Of a stretch of DNA of 64,000 bases, positions 4,138 through 52,969 are shown piece after piece. Made by a program: the position numbers and the translations under genes. The notes below the pieces were generated by a model. It had not been told where the DNA came from, ran no database searches, and saw nothing but the letters and a program-made list of their open reading frames with translations. The stretch comes from Omnitrophica bacterium GWA2_41_15 (GTDB lineage Bacteria > Omnitrophota > Gorgyraeia > Ghiorseimicrobiales > Ghiorseimicrobiaceae): assembly GCA_919902105.1 (NCBI GenBank), contig CAKKQO010000017.1:3305-67304 (forward strand). Direction: 5' to 3'. The stretch's first letter is position 1; each line of letters opens with the position of its first letter.

Positions 4138-6192
4138 ATGGATATTCCTTTTCATATTTTTAAAAAAGACCCGGATAAATCTTTCATTGTTGATTACGCC
4201 CCGATTTTTTCCGGGCTCAATATTCTCGAGAAAAACCTTATCATTGAAAAAAGCAAAGTAGTGGAATATAAAAAAGACGATTTGATTTATAAAGAACTTG
4301 ACCCTCCGGACGGATTCTATTGCGTAATTACCGGCAGGATAAAAATTGCTACCGGAAAGAAAACACTGGAATACCTCCACTGCGGAAATTATTTCGGGAT
4401 TATCTCGCTTTTAACCGGGGATGCGCATTCGGTAAATGCCATAGCCGCCAACGACTCTAAAATCCTAAAAATAGAAAAAGATGATTTTGGCGAGATTTTA
4501 AAGCGCATTCCGCACTTAGCTATTGATTTAAGCAAGACCCTTTCGCGCCGTCTGCGCAAAAAAGAGGTTAAAGAAAAAAGGATTTTTGAAAGCAATATCA
4601 TTTCGGTCTTTAGCGCCGCAGGCGTTGGCGGGCGCACGATGTATGCGGCAGACTTGGCGGTTAATTTAAGGAAAGAAACCGAAAGGAACGTTATTTTAGT
4701 TGATATAAGCAAAAACCCGGTTGGCGTATGCCGGGCATTAGGGATTATCCCGCGGGATGACTTACAGCTTCCCGCGATTAAATTAGATACGCCGTTTTTT
4801 ACCGGAGGAATAATCCAAAAGGCAATTATTAAAGACGAGGCGAAAGGTGTAGATATTTTAAATGTGGCGCATGAAAGCGCTGAAGGGAAATTCGCAGCAA
4901 ACCTAAGCGCGCTACTAACCCACCTTGCCAGCGAATACCACTACATCATTGTTGACTTACCTTGCGAAGTTGACGCTGTGGTAAACCAAGCGCTGAGGCA
5001 ATCAGACAGCATTAATATAATTACTGATAATCTCAGCGCCAACCTTATAAAAACCGAGACGTTAATTTCCGAATTAGAGACGAAGATAAATTCTGCCTTT
5101 GACAAAATAAAAATAATTTTAAATGTCAGGGCTGGCGAGAACCGCGTTAATTACGAAGAAACCCTTAGTGCGCTTAAATATAAGATATATGCTACTCTGC
5201 CGGCATTTTGGGAGAAGGCTTTAGAAGGCGCATCGATGCCAGAGAGCCTCGAAGCTGAATATAAAAAAGCAATACGCCGGATTGCCAGGGAGGTCGGGGA
5301 TGTGCGCGTGGGTTTGGCTTTAAGCGGCGGGGCGGCTTTTGGCCTTGCGCATATCGGGGTAATCAGGGTATTAGAACGGGAGAATATTCCGGTGGATGTG
5401 GTAGTCGGCTCCAGTATGGGCGCTCTTATTGCCGCCTTCTGGGCGGTAGGATTGGATAATGATGAATTAGAGAAGGTCGCCTTGGAATTTAACAGCCGCA
5501 AAAAAGCATTTCATTTGATGATGGATTTTGGTTTTCCGAAGCTCTCTTTTGCCAAAGGAAGGAGAATAAAAAAATTGTTACATAAGGTTCTCGCAGATAA
5601 AACATTTGCCGATACAAAATTTCCGCTGAAAATCGTCGCCTGTAATATAAGCAAGCGCTCTAAATTTATCTTTGAGTCGGGCCCCCTTGTGGATGCGGTA
5701 ATGGCCAGTATTGCCATTCCCGGCCTATTTGCTCCAGTTAAAGTAAATGGGGATTTGTTGGTCGATGGCGGTATAATTGAGCCGGTCCCGGTGGGGACAT
5801 TAGTCAAAATGGGGATAAAAAAGATAATTGCGGTGGATACTTTGCCACGGCCGGAAAATATCTTAGAAAATTACGAATACTACTTGAAAATGGCAGAGGC
5901 GCAAAGTAAGCAGATGGAAGGGCGCAGTTTTTTAGACAGGATTATTTCCCGCATGAAAATGCGTTTTAATCAAATGTTTTTTCCTAATATCCTTGACATC
6001 ATCGTCAATAGCATACAGACATTAGAGTCTGCTGTTTCGGAGTCCGATTGCCAAATGGCTGATATCGTGTTGAGGCCTTTTGCCGTAGGAGTAGACTGGT
6101 TTGAGTTATATAAGTCGCAAGCATTAATAAAGAAAGGCATAGAAGAGGCAAGAAGGGCCATGCCTGATATTAAAAATCTCCTCAAAGAATAA
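4138..6192 (+). CDS. Three-domain protein: cyclic-nucleotide-binding domain + degenerate MinD/ParA-like domain + patatin-like phospholipase
   Basis: 684 aa. CAP_ED-like N-terminus (YFGIISLLTGDAHSVNAIA). Middle ISVFSAAGVGGRTM resembles a deviant Walker A lacking the Lys. Patatin motifs LSGGAAFG, GSSMG (GxSxG), DGG. Confidence 0.8.
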   Translation: MDIPFHIFKKDPDKSFIVDYAPIFSGLNILEKNLIIEKSKVVEYKKDDLIYKELDPPDGFYCVITGRIKIATGKKTLEYLHCGNYFGIISLLTGDAHSVNAIAANDSKILKIEKDDFGEILKRIPHLAIDLSKTLSRRLRKKEVKEKRIFESNIISVFSAAGVGGRTMYAADLAVNLRKETERNVILVDISKNPVGVCRALGIIPRDDLQLPAIKLDTPFFTGGIIQKAIIKDEAKGVDILNVAHESAEGKFAANLSALLTHLASEYHYIIVDLPCEVDAVVNQALRQSDSINIITDNLSANLIKTETLISELETKINSAFDKIKIILNVRAGENRVNYEETLSALKYKIYATLPAFWEKALEGASMPESLEAEYKKAIRRIAREVGDVRVGLALSGGAAFGLAHIGVIRVLERENIPVDVVVGSSMGALIAAFWAVGLDNDELEKVALEFNSRKKAFHLMMDFGFPKLSFAKGRRIKKLLHKVLADKTFADTKFPLKIVACNISKRSKFIFESGPLVDAVMASIAIPGLFAPVKVNGDLLVDGGIIEPVPVGTLVKMGIKKIIAVDTLPRPENILENYEYYLKMAEAQSKQMEGRSFLDRIISRMKMRFNQMFFPNILDIIVNSIQTLESAVSESDCQMADIVLRPFAVGVDWFELYKSQALIKKGIEEARRAMPDIKNLLKE

Positions 6193-17471: not shown

Positions 17472-17840
17472 ATGGATGATTTTATTCAGAAGCTGGATAT
17501 GATCGCCGATAAAGACAAACGTTATAAGCTCGACGCTTATGATTTTGTATTGGAGGCGCTTTCTTATATTCAGAAGAAAACCAAAAAGAAAGGCCACATC
17601 AGCGGCCAGGAATTGCTTTTAGGAATAAGGGAATATGCGCTTTCGCAATTCGGCGGCTTAAGCAAAGTGGTGTTTGAACACTGGGGAGTAAGATCGACGG
17701 AAGATTTCGGAGAAATAGTGTTTAATATGGTCAATGAGAATCTGTTGTATAAGACCGAAGGCGACTCTAAAGAAGATTTTAAGGGTTTCTATGATTTTGA
17801 AGAGGCCTTTAAGGTAAAATTCGACGCAGATCCCGTCTAA
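17472..17840 (+). CDS. Conserved hypothetical protein
   Basis: 122-aa ORF tightly coupled to the previous gene. No motif recognised. Confidence 0.4.
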   Translation: MDDFIQKLDMIADKDKRYKLDAYDFVLEALSYIQKKTKKKGHISGQELLLGIREYALSQFGGLSKVVFEHWGVRSTEDFGEIVFNMVNENLLYKTEGDSKEDFKGFYDFEEAFKVKFDADPV

Positions 17841-17879
17841 ATTAATTTTCTAAACTATCCTGCCTAAATTAGAAAATCT

Positions 17880-18977
17880 ATGAAGAGATATCTTACTGAG
17901 CCTCCGATAAATAATGGGCACATTGGAGGCTTAGGTTTGAGCCAGATGCAAGGCGCGACGACGAAGGCGTGCCCAATGTGGCACGCAGAGGAGGAGCAAC
18001 GAAGCAGCAGGCCAAAGATAAGCCTCCCCTTCGGGGCTGGCCGCTTTTGGGCTGCGACTGCGTCGTTCGTCCTTGGCGTAGTGCATAGACTACGCCGGCG
18101 TCCTCACTTCTTGTCTCGCTCCAAAATCGTCACAGCCAATGTACTCATTATTTATCGGAGGCTCAGTAGCATAATTATTACATTAGGTTTGCTGCTGGCA
18201 GGCCTAAGTAGTTATGCAACGGGCAAAACCCATAGCGTTATTTACGTTACTGCCAAATCCGCTGTGGTTGTTGATGCTCGGACGAATAAAATCTTATATG
18301 CAAAGAATATTAATTTGCATATACCGCCAGCATCTTGCGCAAAAATAATGACAGCGTTACTTGTTTTAGAAAAAATAGAGCTTGATAAACTAATAACCGT
18401 TTCTAAAAGGGCGGCAAGTATTGAGCCGAGTAAGGCGGGGCTTAGATGGGGTAGTCAATATCGCTCGGCTGACCTATTAGCTGCCTGCCTAATGTCCTCT
18501 GCTAATGATGCTTCTATCGCTCTTGCCGAAGAAATTTGCGGGTCAGAAAGCGAATTTGTGAAGCTGATGAATGAAAAGGCAAAAAAAATTGGGATGGAAA
18601 ACACCCGTTTCGCCAATGCTACGGGCCTGCCTTCTAAAAAAATAGAACAATATTCTACGGTTTACGATTTAGCGCGGATGATGCGCTATGCCTTAAATAA
18701 GCCGCAAATAGTCGAACTTATGAATAAAAAAGAGAAGTTCATTTCCGGCAGTGACGGCCGCAAGATTTATTTACGGAATCATAATAAAATGCTCTGGAAA
18801 AAACCCAAGTCTATAATCGGCAAAACCGGATATACCATAAAGTCTCGGCATTGCTTTACGGGCGCTGCTGGTTCTGGCAGCAGGCAGAAAGTCGTCTTTG
18901 CCATTCTTTCTTCAAGAAGACTCTGGCAGGACATAAGCATCCTTGTTAATCACGGATTGTATTTGAAAGGGGAATAG
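17880..18977 (+). CDS. Serine-type D-Ala-D-Ala carboxypeptidase (peptidase S11, PBP5/DacA-like) carrying a 93-codon in-frame insertion in its signal peptide
   Basis: SxxK (SCAK), SxN (SAND), KTG (KTGYT) motifs. Removing 17892-18170 gives MKRY-IIITLGLLLAGLSSYA, a canonical signal peptide. Confidence 0.75.
   Translation: MKRYLTEPPINNGHIGGLGLSQMQGATTKACPMWHAEEEQRSSRPKISLPFGAGRFWAATASFVLGVVHRLRRRPHFLSRSKIVTANVLIIYRRLSSIIITLGLLLAGLSSYATGKTHSVIYVTAKSAVVVDARTNKILYAKNINLHIPPASCAKIMTALLVLEKIELDKLITVSKRAASIEPSKAGLRWGSQYRSADLLAACLMSSANDASIALAEEICGSESEFVKLMNEKAKKIGMENTRFANATGLPSKKIEQYSTVYDLARMMRYALNKPQIVELMNKKEKFISGSDGRKIYLRNHNKMLWKKPKSIIGKTGYTIKSRHCFTGAAGSGSRQKVVFAILSSRRLWQDISILVNHGLYLKGE
17892..18170 (+). 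mobile_element. 279-bp GC-rich element E1 with about 34-bp terminal inverted repeats, inserted in-frame in the dac-like gene
   Basis: Arms 17893-17926 and 18136-18169 pair at 33 of 34 positions on the + strand (31 Watson-Crick, 2 G-U). Internal hairpins GGCGTAGT-gcatag-ACTACGCC, GCGTGCC/GGCACGC, CCCC-UUCG-GGG. Length is exactly 93 codons with no stop. Confidence 0.55.
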
Positions 18978-19459: not shown

Positions 19460-19528
19460 TTAATAATAACTGCCTGCCGCGTGATATCAAAAAGGATAGC
19501 ATTTATCTAAAAAATATTGGAGGTGACA

Positions 19529-19918
19529 ATGGGCAATAGAATTTTGGTATTAATTTTGATAAGTTTTTTGTTAATGAATGTATGCGGTTGTGTGGCAATT
19601 TTAGCCGGCACTGCCGGAGGCGTAGGCACAGCGGCTTGGCTTTCGGGAAAATTGACGCAGGATGTAAATGCGCCGTTTGAGCACGTTATTAAAGCCGCCA
19701 AATCTGCCTTAGAGTCGCTTAAATTGACGGTTGAAAAAGAAACTGTTGAGAAAAACTCCGGCCAGATTATCAGTAAATATTCTGACGGGAAAAATATCTG
19801 GATTGATATACACCGTCTTACTCCTACCAGGTCAAGGATTGAAATCCGTGTAGGTGTAGTCAGCCCGGACAAAGAAGCCGCCGATAAAATACTAAAGGCA
19901 ATAATTAAATATTTATAA
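19529..19918 (+). CDS. Lipoprotein, DUF3568-like
   Basis: ATG 19529 after GGAGG. Signal peptide with lipobox-like NVCGC. C-terminal IEIRVG pattern. Confidence 0.55.
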   Translation: MGNRILVLILISFLLMNVCGCVAILAGTAGGVGTAAWLSGKLTQDVNAPFEHVIKAAKSALESLKLTVEKETVEKNSGQIISKYSDGKNIWIDIHRLTPTRSRIEIRVGVVSPDKEAADKILKAIIKYL

Positions 19919-19922
19919 TATT

Positions 19923-20108
19923 GAGAAACGTAAAACTAATGGAACTTCTTCGCACACGAAATTTTTTGCCGTCTATTTCGGTTTACGTCTTTAGGTGTTA
20001 CGCTCCATAGAAGATTGTCGCTACACCTTCGCCGTAATTCCTCATAGACTTTTGCCAAAAGATTTCTTATTGTGTGCTTTCAGAAATTCCATTAGTTTTG
20101 CGTACCTC
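19923..20108. mobile_element. 186-bp rod-like palindromic element E2 (MITE-like), intergenic
   Basis: Arms GAGAAACGTAAAACTAATGGAACTTCT...GCACAC (19923-19957) and GTGTGC...AGAAATTCCATTAGTTTTGCGTACCTC (20072-20108). Pairing continues inward (GTCTAT/ATAGAC, GGTGT/ACACC). Confidence 0.45.
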
Positions 20109-20127
20109 TATAGATAGTTTAATCAGC

Positions 20128-43821: not shown

Positions 43822-44844
43822 ATGGAAAAACAAGATATAAAAAATCTGTCTTTGGCAGAATTAAAGGCAGATTTACTTGCCTTATCTTTTGCTCCTTATG
43901 TAGCAGAGCAAATTTTCACTTGGCTCTATAAAAAGAGAATAAGTAGTTTTTCTGGAATGTCCAATATCTCTAAGGGCAATATTTCTAAATTAAAAAATAA
44001 ATTTTATATCGGTGATATAGCCTTGAAAGATAAGTTGATATCCAAAGACGGAACAATAAAATTTCTCTTTGGATTAATAGATAAAGAGGCGGTAGAGACC
44101 GTATTTATTCCCGCCAAAAACAGGAATACCCTTTGCCTTTCTTCACAGGTAGGCTGTAAATTCAGGTGTTTATTTTGCGCCAGCGGCAAGAGTTTTGTCA
44201 GAAATTTATCCGTTTCTGAAATCACTTCGCAGTTATCCAGAATAATTGAGATTACAGGCGCCGCGGTAAGCCACCTCGTATTTATGGGAATAGGCGAGCC
44301 GTTGGATAATTATGATAATGTATTTAAAGCCGTACGGATTTTTAACGCTCCTTCGGCTTTTAATATCGGCGCGCGCCGCATTACCATTTCTACCTGCGGC
44401 ATAATCCCTGCGATTGAAAATTTAGCACGGCAAGGCCTGCAGGTAGAATTATCCATATCTTTACATGCGGCAGATAATGAGCTAAGGAATAAGCTTATGC
44501 CCGTGAATAAAAGGTACCCTTTGGATAAATTAATTTCCTGCGTGCGCGAGTATATAAAACAAACTAACCGCCAGATTACCTTCGAGTATATTTTAATAAA
44601 AGGATTAAATGATAGTTTATCTTGCGCCGATAAATTGTCTAAGCTTTTATCCGGGCTAAATTTTAAAGTTAACCTTATTCTATTTAATCTGCAGGAAGGG
44701 TCTTGTTTTCAGCCGCCAGACAAAAAACTTGTCTTAGGTTTTAAAGAGCGGCTGATAAAAAATGGCACTCATGCAACTACAAGAGCATCACGCGGCCAGG
44801 ATATTCGTGCTGCCTGCGGGCAATTAAGAATAGCGCATAATTAG
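43822..44844 (+). CDS. rlmN: 23S rRNA/tRNA (adenine-C2)-methyltransferase RlmN (radical SAM)
   Basis: 340 aa. CLSSQVGCKFRCLFCASG, MGIGEPLDN, C-terminal IRAACGQL. Confidence 0.85.
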   Translation: MEKQDIKNLSLAELKADLLALSFAPYVAEQIFTWLYKKRISSFSGMSNISKGNISKLKNKFYIGDIALKDKLISKDGTIKFLFGLIDKEAVETVFIPAKNRNTLCLSSQVGCKFRCLFCASGKSFVRNLSVSEITSQLSRIIEITGAAVSHLVFMGIGEPLDNYDNVFKAVRIFNAPSAFNIGARRITISTCGIIPAIENLARQGLQVELSISLHAADNELRNKLMPVNKRYPLDKLISCVREYIKQTNRQITFEYILIKGLNDSLSCADKLSKLLSGLNFKVNLILFNLQEGSCFQPPDKKLVLGFKERLIKNGTHATTRASRGQDIRAACGQLRIAHN

Positions 44845-44880
44845 GGACACATCCCATTTTTAAAAAATGGGATGTGTCCC
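44844..44880. repeat. Perfect 18-bp-arm palindrome between rlmN and the deacetylase gene
   Basis: GGGACACATCCCATTTTT / AAAAATGGGATGTGTCCC with no spacer. Overlaps the last base of the rlmN stop codon. Confidence 0.85.
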
Positions 44881-44891
44881 TAATAAATAAT

Positions 44892-52231: not shown

Positions 52232-52317
52232 TGGTGCCGAAGAAGGGAGTTGAACCCTTACGAGCTTACGCTCATCGGTTTTTGAGACCGACGTGTATGC
52301 CATTCCACCACTTCGGC
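52232..52317 (-). tRNA. tRNA-Leu (anticodon CAA), class II with long variable arm, CCA encoded
   Basis: Reverse complement GCCGAAG-TG-...TCGGT-CTCAAAA-ACCGA...AAGGGTTCAACTCCCTT-CTTCGGC-ACCA folds as a cloverleaf with anticodon loop CU-CAA-AA. Confidence 0.9.

Positions 52318-52893: not shown

Positions 52894-52969
<76 letters not shown>

Follow-up and report, generated by a model that had tools for sequence, protein, structure and literature searches.

Bacterial MITEs (miniature inverted-repeat transposable elements) that have TA termini, stem-loop transcripts, intercistronic sites and occasional in-frame fusions are already known. Here, we describe a family of repeats that came to light through a GC-rich inverted-repeat block in the D-alanyl-D-alanine carboxypeptidase gene (dac) of Omnitrophica bacterium GWA2_41_15. 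The DNA that was analysed, called the window in this text, is a stretch of 64,000 nucleotides from contig CAKKQO010000017.1. The block in dac is very probably one copy of a MITE, i.e. of a non-autonomous DNA transposon, whose insertion duplicated a TA target. A MITE that lands in frame in a gene is, taken alone, fairly ordinary. What is new is the family itself, its size, its branched and covarying core, the stop and Shine-Dalgarno signals in both of its ends, its presence in rpoBC, atp, dcw and ribosomal-protein operons, its strong orientation bias, and an open frame that ends on the target duplication. We found no paper on MITEs in Omnitrophota, a phylum that is little known and mostly uncultured, and as far as the searchable literature shows, this is apparently the first family described there.

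Several known systems share parts of this picture. The Correia elements (NEMIS) of Neisseria are likewise non-autonomous, have terminal repeats of about 24-26 bp and TA termini, form transcripts with a long end-to-end stem that are co-transcribed with the neighbouring genes, and have some frames fused to host open reading frames (ORFs) (PMC2229807). However, Correia elements measure 107-155 bp, have no branched core and carry promoters and an IHF site, whereas the elements described here are 270-420 bp long, contain three hairpins, two of which covary, carry no promoter or terminator motif in the copies scanned, and have Shine-Dalgarno and stop signals in their ends. There is no sequence similarity between the two, and the hosts belong to different phyla. 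RUP of Streptococcus pneumoniae also combines a TA target with terminal repeats. It is the best-documented MITE tied to an IS630-family transposase, that of IS630-Spn1 (PMC2229807), and serves as the model for the mobilisation mechanism that we propose; but it is only 107 bp long, carries stop codons in each of the six frames, and its parent insertion sequence has been identified, while in our family no parent was found and one frame is kept open. ERIC (IRU) and YPAL (RU-2) are small palindromic intercistronic repeats that are co-transcribed and contain open frames; ERIC has TA termini, and YPAL fusions create signal peptides (PMC2229807). At 127-168 bp they are smaller, and they are not reported to provide a downstream Shine-Dalgarno site or a stop codon made from the target duplication.

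Two further systems resemble single aspects of the family. The Rickettsia palindromic elements (RPE) are palindromes that are inserted in frame in conserved protein genes and are translated (PMC2229807), which makes them the closest analogue of the event in dac. In-frame insertion is recurrent in RPE, whereas here a single insertion out of 36 shows it, as an exception, and most copies have stops in the frame concerned. The REP2 repeats of Neisseria and the IR repeats of Borrelia lie directly upstream of genes and give them a ribosome-binding site (PMC3184786), as our elements do; REP2, however, has no terminal inverted repeats, brings its own promoter and ATG, and is not a TA-duplicating transposon.

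The inverted-repeat block in dac and its empty site

All orientations given below take the plus strand of the window as reference. Copies found elsewhere and an empty orthologous site fix the limits of the element at 17896-18166. The features of the locus are as follows.

17880-18977, plus strand: host gene, D-alanyl-D-alanine carboxypeptidase (Peptidase_S11), 365 codons with the insert included (ORF list)
17894-17895, no strand: left TA target-site duplication (TA on both sides in 32/46 copies; the empty orthologous site has 2 nt)
17896-18166, plus strand: MITE, 271 bp (nhmmer and BLAST full-length matches to 45 other copies, the closest 89% identical)
17896-17926, plus strand: left terminal inverted repeat, with CCTCC at 17901-17905, i.e. 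an outward GGAGG on the minus strand
18136-18166, plus strand: right terminal inverted repeat; its GGAGG at 18157-18161 faces outward
18167-18168, no strand: right TA target-site duplication (comparison of copy flanks, and the empty orthologous site)
18167-18217, plus strand: remainder of the original signal peptide, SIIITLGLLLAGLSSYA, now residues 97-113 of the ORF (translation and hydropathy)

The terminal inverted repeats are 31 nt long and conserved across all 46 copies of the family; in the window copy, 28 of the 31 positions are identical between the two ends. The window contains exactly two occurrences of the 22-mer ACTGAGCCTCCGATAAATAATG, inverted relative to each other, where none is expected (100 shuffles). 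A general repeat search of the window did not list the 31 nt pair, which a sequence search and a script both show; we judged this to be a miss of the tool. An earlier reading, made from the sequence alone, had described pairing between 17893-17926 and 18136-18169, a GC-rich interior and a UUCG-type loop. All of this holds: the script counts 31 Watson-Crick pairs, two G-U pairs and one C-A mismatch, the GC content is 0.63 at 17950-18099 against a window mean of 0.41, and a C(UUCG)G loop lies within 18025-18036. The fold of the element reaches -149.2 kcal/mol on the plus strand (z = -11.6) and -146.8 kcal/mol on the minus strand (z = -11.3).

Dac homologues (PF00768/PF13354) are 260-290 aa long. 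The extra segment is absent from all of the others (1133 matches), apart from NCBI's annotation of the same sequence. A homologue that is 94% identical (P0002, 274 aa) is encoded on contigs L027 and L028, both of them gene-for-gene syntenic to the window, and its N-terminus is MKRYLSIIIIILGLLLGISSYATGK. These contigs thus provide the empty site that the sequence-only reading had proposed to look for in dac orthologues. The empty site reads ATGAAGAGATATCTCAGCATC (MKRYLSI..., N-terminus MKRYLSIII), while the filled site in the window reads ATGAAGAGATATCT-TA-(271 bp)-TA-GCATA, with the left flank ending ...TATCT. Once the element and both TAs are taken out of the window sequence, the site in L027/L028 exceeds it by 2 nt. 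At the insertion point the orthologue has CA, not TA, and the two genes differ there by a synonymous CTT/CTC change, which suggests that the dac site carried a TA before the insertion. Clean removal of the element restores MKRYLSIIITLGLLLAGLSSYA, and the resulting protein MKRYLSIIITLG... matches the orthologue MKRYLSIIIIILG...; the deletion joining MKRY to IIITLG that had been proposed earlier is thus not the right one.

The insertion therefore amounts to 273 nt (271 bp plus TA), or 91 codons, and falls between Leu5 and Ser6 of Dac. The block had been described as 93 stop-free codons with limits on codon boundaries; it is indeed stop-free within the ORF at 17880-18977, but its size and limits had to be corrected. 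Downstream of the element, 268 codons are intact, without frameshift or stop over 810 nt, and the dN/dS of dac against the orthologue is 0.16. The NCBI model of the gene (P0001, 333 aa) starts at the ATG at 17973, inside the transposon in the loop of hairpin H1 (see below), whereas the orthologue uses the native ATG equivalent to 17880. The mobile insert accounts both for the odd N-terminus of dac and for the mis-set start in the public annotation.

Family members and their mobility

A scan of 185,579 species-representative genomes with the exact 20 nt of the arm yielded 26 loci, 21 with full-length copies and three with copies cut by the end of the sequence, so that the other copies whose existence had been left as a question are present. 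All scans required an exact match of 20-23 nt. The hosts are nearly all Candidatus Omnitrophota metagenome-assembled genomes (MAGs), several of which gave 3-7 loci each; in addition, there is the complete genome of Ca. Velamenicoccus archaeovorus. The 21 full-length copies measure 235-398 bp and are 72-88% identical by BLAST, nhmmer and end-matching. Another 25 full copies, 270-421 bp in length, came from a metagenome scan. This gives 46 copies of 235-421 bp from Omnitrophota genomes and metagenomes, which represent 36 independent insertions.

The flanks of the copies are unrelated to each other. Outside the CTGAG...CTCAG ends, 32 of the 46 copies have TA on both sides, and 41 have it on one side or both. 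The consensus of the flank is T-TA-A, often with the TA of a stop codon that stands beside a start codon. Apart from an ORF of about 88 codons without a Pfam domain, the copies contain no ORF. The window copy has terminal inverted repeats, has dispersed relatives, is small and free of a transposase gene, and shows the TA duplication in the comparison of filled and empty site; these are the properties of a MITE. A target duplication of 2 bp is the mark of transposition of the IS630/Tc1-mariner type, as in RUP and IS630-Spn1 (PMC2229807). Because this TA duplication is combined with long terminal repeats, we infer that the element was presumably moved in trans by a cut-and-paste transposase of this type. 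The TA duplication, the long terminal repeats and the branched core do not fit the RAYT-mobilised REP/BIME/REPIN class.

Some observations count against the assignment to a transposon family. The window copy is the only one within the 64 kb, and among the sampled copies, which come from other lineages, none exceeds 89% identity to it. No transposase or autonomous element with the ends of the family (CTGAGCCTCCGATAAATAATGG-like) turned up in the genome, metagenome and viral scans, in which diverged ends would have been missed. The family of the transposase would have to be assigned from the TA duplication only. Everything that matched the end sequence in these scans was a copy of MITE size, a remnant or a chance coding match. 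In the 547 kb of sequence fetched around the loci, no inverted pair of 14 nt ends lay 0.5-4 kb apart, as an autonomous parent would require, and a protein search with the element ORF gave products of 62-120 aa only, none of the size of a transposase. The viral-contig scan produced six matches, all to one unrelated coding sequence, and no copy of the element. A covariance-model search, which had been suggested along with the sequence-only reading, found no match for the element in Rfam at the gathering threshold for the whole window, and only chance-level matches at E <= 10 for 17800-18260. The element as a self-splicing intron, a ribozyme or a known structured RNA has no support, as no curated model matches it.

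Chance coding matches to the 20-mer were discarded (L014, L029, L030, L037, L046, L069). At L014 1117-1136, the 20-mer encodes the Rossmann motif LFIGGSG (GGSG). A second conserved gene of marine and viral contigs carries the 20-mer by chance (L029, L030, L037, L069, L074, L076-L079), and L046 and L075 contain separate single chance matches to the end sequence.

Operon junctions, through-frame and core structure

Most surviving copies sit at the stop/start junctions of co-transcribed housekeeping genes, where the terminal repeats take the place of one gene's stop codon and the next gene's Shine-Dalgarno site. Read outward, the repeat ends ...CGGAGGCTCAG-TA (GGAGG-CTCAG-TA). Read inward, it gives (TA)C-TGA in one frame and CTG AGC CTC CGA TAA in another, followed by ATA ATG; the left repeat of the window copy accordingly contains TGA (using the TA), a TAA spanning nt 13-15 and an ATG spanning nt 19-21. 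Reading into a repeat is thus halted at nt 4 or nt 15 in two frames out of three. At 24 of the 36 independent insertions, an ORF of 100 codons or more begins with an ATG no further than 17 nt beyond one end, whereas random TA sites of these loci show this at a rate of 10.3% (p = 7.5e-16). The intact N-termini of the downstream genes, as judged by Pfam, include those of RpoC, TopA, L17, MraY, TrmD, AtpD, RbfA, Pta, MiaA and Alr. A co-directional upstream ORF usually continues into the entering repeat, where its stop lies at nt 4 or nt 15. Independent gene calls agree with this arrangement: murF is followed by the element ORF and this by mraY, with stop and start adjacent, and the element likewise lies between the genes of the small and large subunit of a hydrogenase. 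With these signals, inward stop codons and an outward Shine-Dalgarno site for a start codon just outside, the ends of the family would be harmless in operons. We take the signals as used because the downstream genes are essential.

Remnants show the same arrangement. At L013 7042-7063, the orthologous site of a full copy in L025, a 22 nt remnant of one repeat gives the upstream gene its TAA and the next gene a GGAGG 8 nt before its ATG. A solo repeat end at about L038 8133-8155 behaves like that in L013, and a 30 nt mini-copy is found between thiS and thiG (L003 4079-4108). L033 and L070 also hold remnants of the element.

Neither a promoter nor a terminator motif was found within the element by scans of the window copy, L001 and L002. 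The 398 bp copy in L017 has, within its AT-rich apex insert, a promoter-like sequence (5524-5552, minus strand; GTGACA-17-TATGAT, 10/12) that points at the downstream pta gene; shuffled sequences contain 0.4 such matches on average, so that this is weak evidence. A second mode of insertion, in which the upstream gene would be fused through the large copies, was rejected, as the conserved upstream gene stops at nt 4 in L002, L008 and L032. The copy in L006 lies upstream of the gene of ribosomal protein L17. Hypervariable read-termination signals over ribosomal-protein operons have been reported in 150 of 223 Omnitrophota chromosomes, with the mechanism left unresolved there (bioRxiv 10.64898/2026.06.07.730766). 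It is a speculation of ours that strain-polymorphic MITE copies in such operons could contribute to this signal.

The orientation of the insertions is strongly biased. Among the 25 compact copies whose flanking genes allow an orientation to be given, 23 have host genes that read the strand opposite to the plus strand of the window (binomial p ~2e-5 by our own arithmetic). Since the repeats are nearly symmetrical, such a bias implies some internal asymmetry. Frame 0 of the strand read by the host has TAA as codon 5 and ATG as codon 7, after which no stop follows in 21 of 28 compact copies. It contains 0.5 stops per copy, compared with averages of 1.0-4.1 in the other five combinations of strand and frame. 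In the open copies, the frame nearly always ends ...CAG|TAA or ...CAG|TAG, with a stop built from the duplicated TA, and in L001, L006 and L025 this stop directly abuts the ATG of the next gene. The lengths common to several copies (270, 282, 285 and 303 bp) and the 288 bp of a single copy are all multiples of 3, while the frame-breaking lengths (271, 271, 272, 283, 284 and 286) are each represented by a single insertion.

A protein-database search revealed at least 102 distinct clusters of the element ORF, with a modal length of 88-89 aa and no Pfam domain. In their alignment, the middle is read in two to three frames depending on the lineage (RRRSRSTTSRTSDAV / RRRSLALRQGRVTQSQ / GGGIVMTMATTNDAG; GEARLSAVCGVAPPRRS / GKPAFRPSAALLLLGVV), and all aligned clusters converge on the end ...LAYGQNSGFQCAHYLSEAQ*. 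We therefore rejected the ORF as a real protein, the frame of its middle half being different between lineages. This pattern suggests that the frame may be selected for openness and not for a peptide.

The family may, as a tentative proposal that we hold with less than even confidence, be a "non-polar" transposon that keeps up translational coupling in operons. On the strand read by the host, the entering repeat would bring the upstream gene to a stop inside 35 nt, whichever of the three frames it uses, and offer an ATG at nt 19-21. The stop-free frame of 84-95 codons would then cross the structured element and end at a TAA composed of the duplicated TA and the base that follows it; this stop would lie 0-14 nt ahead of the downstream ATG, shortly past the GGAGG of the repeat. 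Ribosomes that cross the element would melt the 30 bp terminal stem, which hides the Shine-Dalgarno site, and would keep Rho off the RNA. Insertions between rpoB and rpoC or between murF and mraY would thus be tolerated because the crossing ribosomes open the stem and block Rho-dependent polarity. Several caveats apply to this proposal. The protein set is biased towards open ORFs, and the +1 frame is also open in 12 of 28 copies. The through-frame is lost in the junction copies L039, L054 and L060, and the large copies L002, L012, L017, L056 and L065 have the opposite orientation and no through-frame. A substitution test for depletion of stop-creating changes was uninformative, as the subfamilies differ in frame.

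The family lives in the most essential operons (rpoBC, atp, dcw, ribosomal proteins), where insertions are normally lethal or polar. If the through-frame and the end signals work as proposed, it would be a natural "operon-safe" insertion cassette and a clean system for studying translational coupling, Rho polarity and cost-minimising selfish DNA. For annotation, the repeats will yield spurious 88-residue "hypothetical proteins" in public sets, wrong gene starts and assembly breaks in Omnitrophota.

To obtain a consensus fold, 28 compact copies were aligned and analysed with RNAalifold and by counting pairs. The consensus consists of a 28-pair terminal stem made from both repeats, a near-invariant long-range helix, P2, and three internal hairpins.

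17948-17963, plus strand: helix P2, 5' strand GCAAGGCGCGACGACG, pairing with 18099-18114 (RNAalifold consensus)
17967-17986, plus strand: hairpin H1, GCGTGCC-loop-GGCACGC (compensatory changes in 4/7 pairs over 28 copies; 100% of cells paired)
17995-18067, plus strand: central hairpin H2, whose C(UUCG)G apex falls inside 18025-18036 (in other copies the apex is an insertion spot, 12-150 nt)
18075-18096, plus strand: hairpin H3, GGCGTAGT-loop-ACTACGCC (compensatory changes in 2/8 pairs)
18099-18114, plus strand: helix P2, 3' strand (RNAalifold consensus and pair counts)

In P2, GCAAGGCGCGACGACG pairs with ...CGTCCTCG..CTTGTC.... The stem of H1 occurs as GTGCC, GTAGT, GTATC, GTACC and GTAAT, and the compensatory changes in H3 are GC to AU in five copies and UA to CG in four. 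The apex of H2, UUCG in the window, is replaced by 12-33 AT-rich nt in the other compact copies and by up to about 150 nt in the large ones. Over 86 pairs in the 28 compact copies, 98.7% of cells are paired, compared with 36-47% in slid controls. Cells in which both sides have changed number 35, compared with 10.7 in column shuffles, and none of 500 shuffles reaches the observed value. The covariation is concentrated in H1 and H3; the remaining helices, P2 included, are too invariant for covariation to test them.

Such a conserved core raises the question of whether it is a functional structure in its own right, i.e. a structured RNA or a single-stranded DNA structure that is carried along by the repeats and serves in transposition, or as an mRNA stabiliser or processing site. 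We consider this possible but on the unlikely side. The degree of pairing, the excess of double changes and the covariation of H1 and H3 speak for it, as do unpaired stretches such as GCAAGGCGCGACGACGA, which are near-invariant, and three core motifs that were never found without the terminal repeats in the fetched sequence. Single copies also fold better in the plus orientation of the window, by about 9 kcal/mol on average and in 19 of 21 copies. However, the consensus energies of the two strands are nearly equal (-101.4 and -98.9), most copies are transcribed on the less well folding strand, and shared ancestry alone can push related copies above shuffle controls.

Over all helices, the plus orientation has 140 G-U cells and 20 A-C cells; on the other strand, the G-U pairs become C-A mismatches. 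Most copies are transcribed in operons on the strand opposite to this G-U-tolerant orientation. The large copies in L012 (4973-5072), L002 and L008 contain one to three tandem 45 nt hairpin modules (GGACCTCCGCATTCCA...) in the apex of H2, and these module-bearing copies are oriented opposite to the compact ones relative to the host genes.

Probable translation of the interrupted dac gene, and nearby insertions

Compared with its relatives, the window copy is atypical: it has the reverse of the usual orientation, its usual through-frame is broken, and it is the only one of the 36 insertions that lies inside a coding sequence. In this orientation, two of the entering frames stop at nt 4 and nt 15, and the third is the frame of dac. 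The dac frame (plus frame 2) has no stop in the window copy, one or two in its closest relatives and one to six in most other copies; about four of 36 copies are without a stop. The H1 stem of most other copies reads CGTAGT, which yields a TAG in the dac frame, while the window copy has CGTGCC and no TAG. By chance, an in-frame length would coincide with an open frame in a few percent of cases. This looks like survivorship, as only such an insert leaves Dac translatable.

On balance, we infer that Dac is probably made by read-through translation, with a basic N-terminal insert of 91 residues. The inserted peptide contains 15 K+R and 4 D+E and ends ...IIYRRLS directly before IIITLGLLLAGLSSYA-TGK. 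According to the positive-inside rule, the basic N-terminal side of a membrane segment stays cytoplasmic, and because the insert is basic, the N-terminus of Dac is predicted to be cytoplasmic. The old hydrophobic segment with its SYA-TG cleavage motif would act as an internal signal or signal-anchor, so that Dac would still be exported. The result thus predicts a DD-carboxypeptidase with a long cytoplasmic leader. A search with the inserted peptide found a single relative, a hypothetical protein of 116 aa from V. archaeovorus; translated in-frame insertion is therefore not a habit of the family. An in-frame MITE that is translated in the manner of RPE had been among the earlier suggestions. 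The MITE stands and its translation is the most likely outcome, but with one insertion in a coding sequence out of 36, the parallel to RPE does not extend to the family.

Not all of the evidence favours read-through. The dN/dS of 0.16 mostly reflects the time before the insertion, the gene could be recently inactivated, and its expression is judged from sequence only. NCBI places the start at an ATG inside the element. The 30 bp stem would hide the region after the start codon as well as the GGAGG of the right arm, and could be a target of RNase III. A less likely alternative is that dac has been inactivated and that its frame is open by luck, which would make it a young pseudogene or a gene that is dispensable owing to paralogues. 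The stem starts 14 nt past the ATG, and a fold of -149 kcal/mol could block elongation or attract RNase III. The chance of an insert that is both in frame (1 in 3) and stop-free is low yet not negligible; about four of 36 copies are stop-free in this frame. However, the downstream 810 nt contain neither frameshift nor stop and have a low dN/dS, the nearest relatives would terminate at the TAG in H1, and the combination of in-frame length and open frame fits what a selection filter leaves.

It had also been suggested that the right arm, whose GGAGG at 18157-18161 does lie 9 nt before the ATA at 18171, supplies dac with a ribosome-binding site. For the family this is borne out by 24 of 36 insertions, and the same GGAGG is the Shine-Dalgarno site of the adjacent gene in most other copies. 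In dac, a start at a codon made or exposed by the element, be it the ATG at 17973 in the H1 loop or ATA/ATT at 18171-18176, 9-12 nt after the GGAGG, seems improbable to us, even though the annotation of P0001 begins at the internal ATG. As initiators in bacteria, ATA and ATT are very weak. There is no ATG, GTG or TTG within 20 nt of the end of the element; the first such codon, a TTG, lies 27 nt after the GGAGG, and a signal peptide starting there would be too short. In the terminal stem, the GGAGG pairs with CCTCC, the ATG at 17973 has no good Shine-Dalgarno site (GAAGG about 9 nt upstream), and both the native ATG and the region upstream of it are intact, with an open frame following. The last of the earlier suggestions, an intervening sequence that is removed from the RNA by self-splicing, or by RNase III and rejoining, so that normal Dac is made, would be in keeping with a long terminal stem that juxtaposes both junctions and with a structured core that is conserved and covaries. 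Nevertheless, we regard it as extremely improbable. No intron or ribozyme family matches in Rfam, about two thirds of the copies lie between cistrons, where removal serves nothing, and the TA duplication with terminal inverted repeats is a mark of DNA transposition. Exact removal of the element would moreover leave an extra TA and shift the frame, and no bacterial pathway is known that rejoins the products of RNase III. Read-through of the inserted MITE remains our preferred reading.

A second, unrelated MITE-like insertion is found at 19919-20112, directly after the stop codon of the ORF at 19517-19918. It is AT-rich and about 190 bp long, has inverted ends of 31 nt (84% complementary) and folds with -66.5 kcal/mol (z = -7.6). 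It is absent from L027, which reads TATTTATAA-TA-GATAG where the window has TA-element-TA, so that the TA is again duplicated; its end matches L021 568-589, which belongs to a different Omnitrophota MAG. The window thus has a pair of TA-duplicating insertions within 2.2 kb that L027, with its 94% identical Dac, lacks, which suggests recent activity of a TA-targeting transposase in the lineage. Elsewhere in the window, a perfect 22 nt palindrome with a 1 nt spacer lies at 44840-44884 (ATTAGGGACACATCCCATTTTT / AAAAATGGGATGTGTCCCTAAT), and tRNA genes at 52235-52317 (minus strand) and 52894-52966 (plus strand) are the only Rfam matches.

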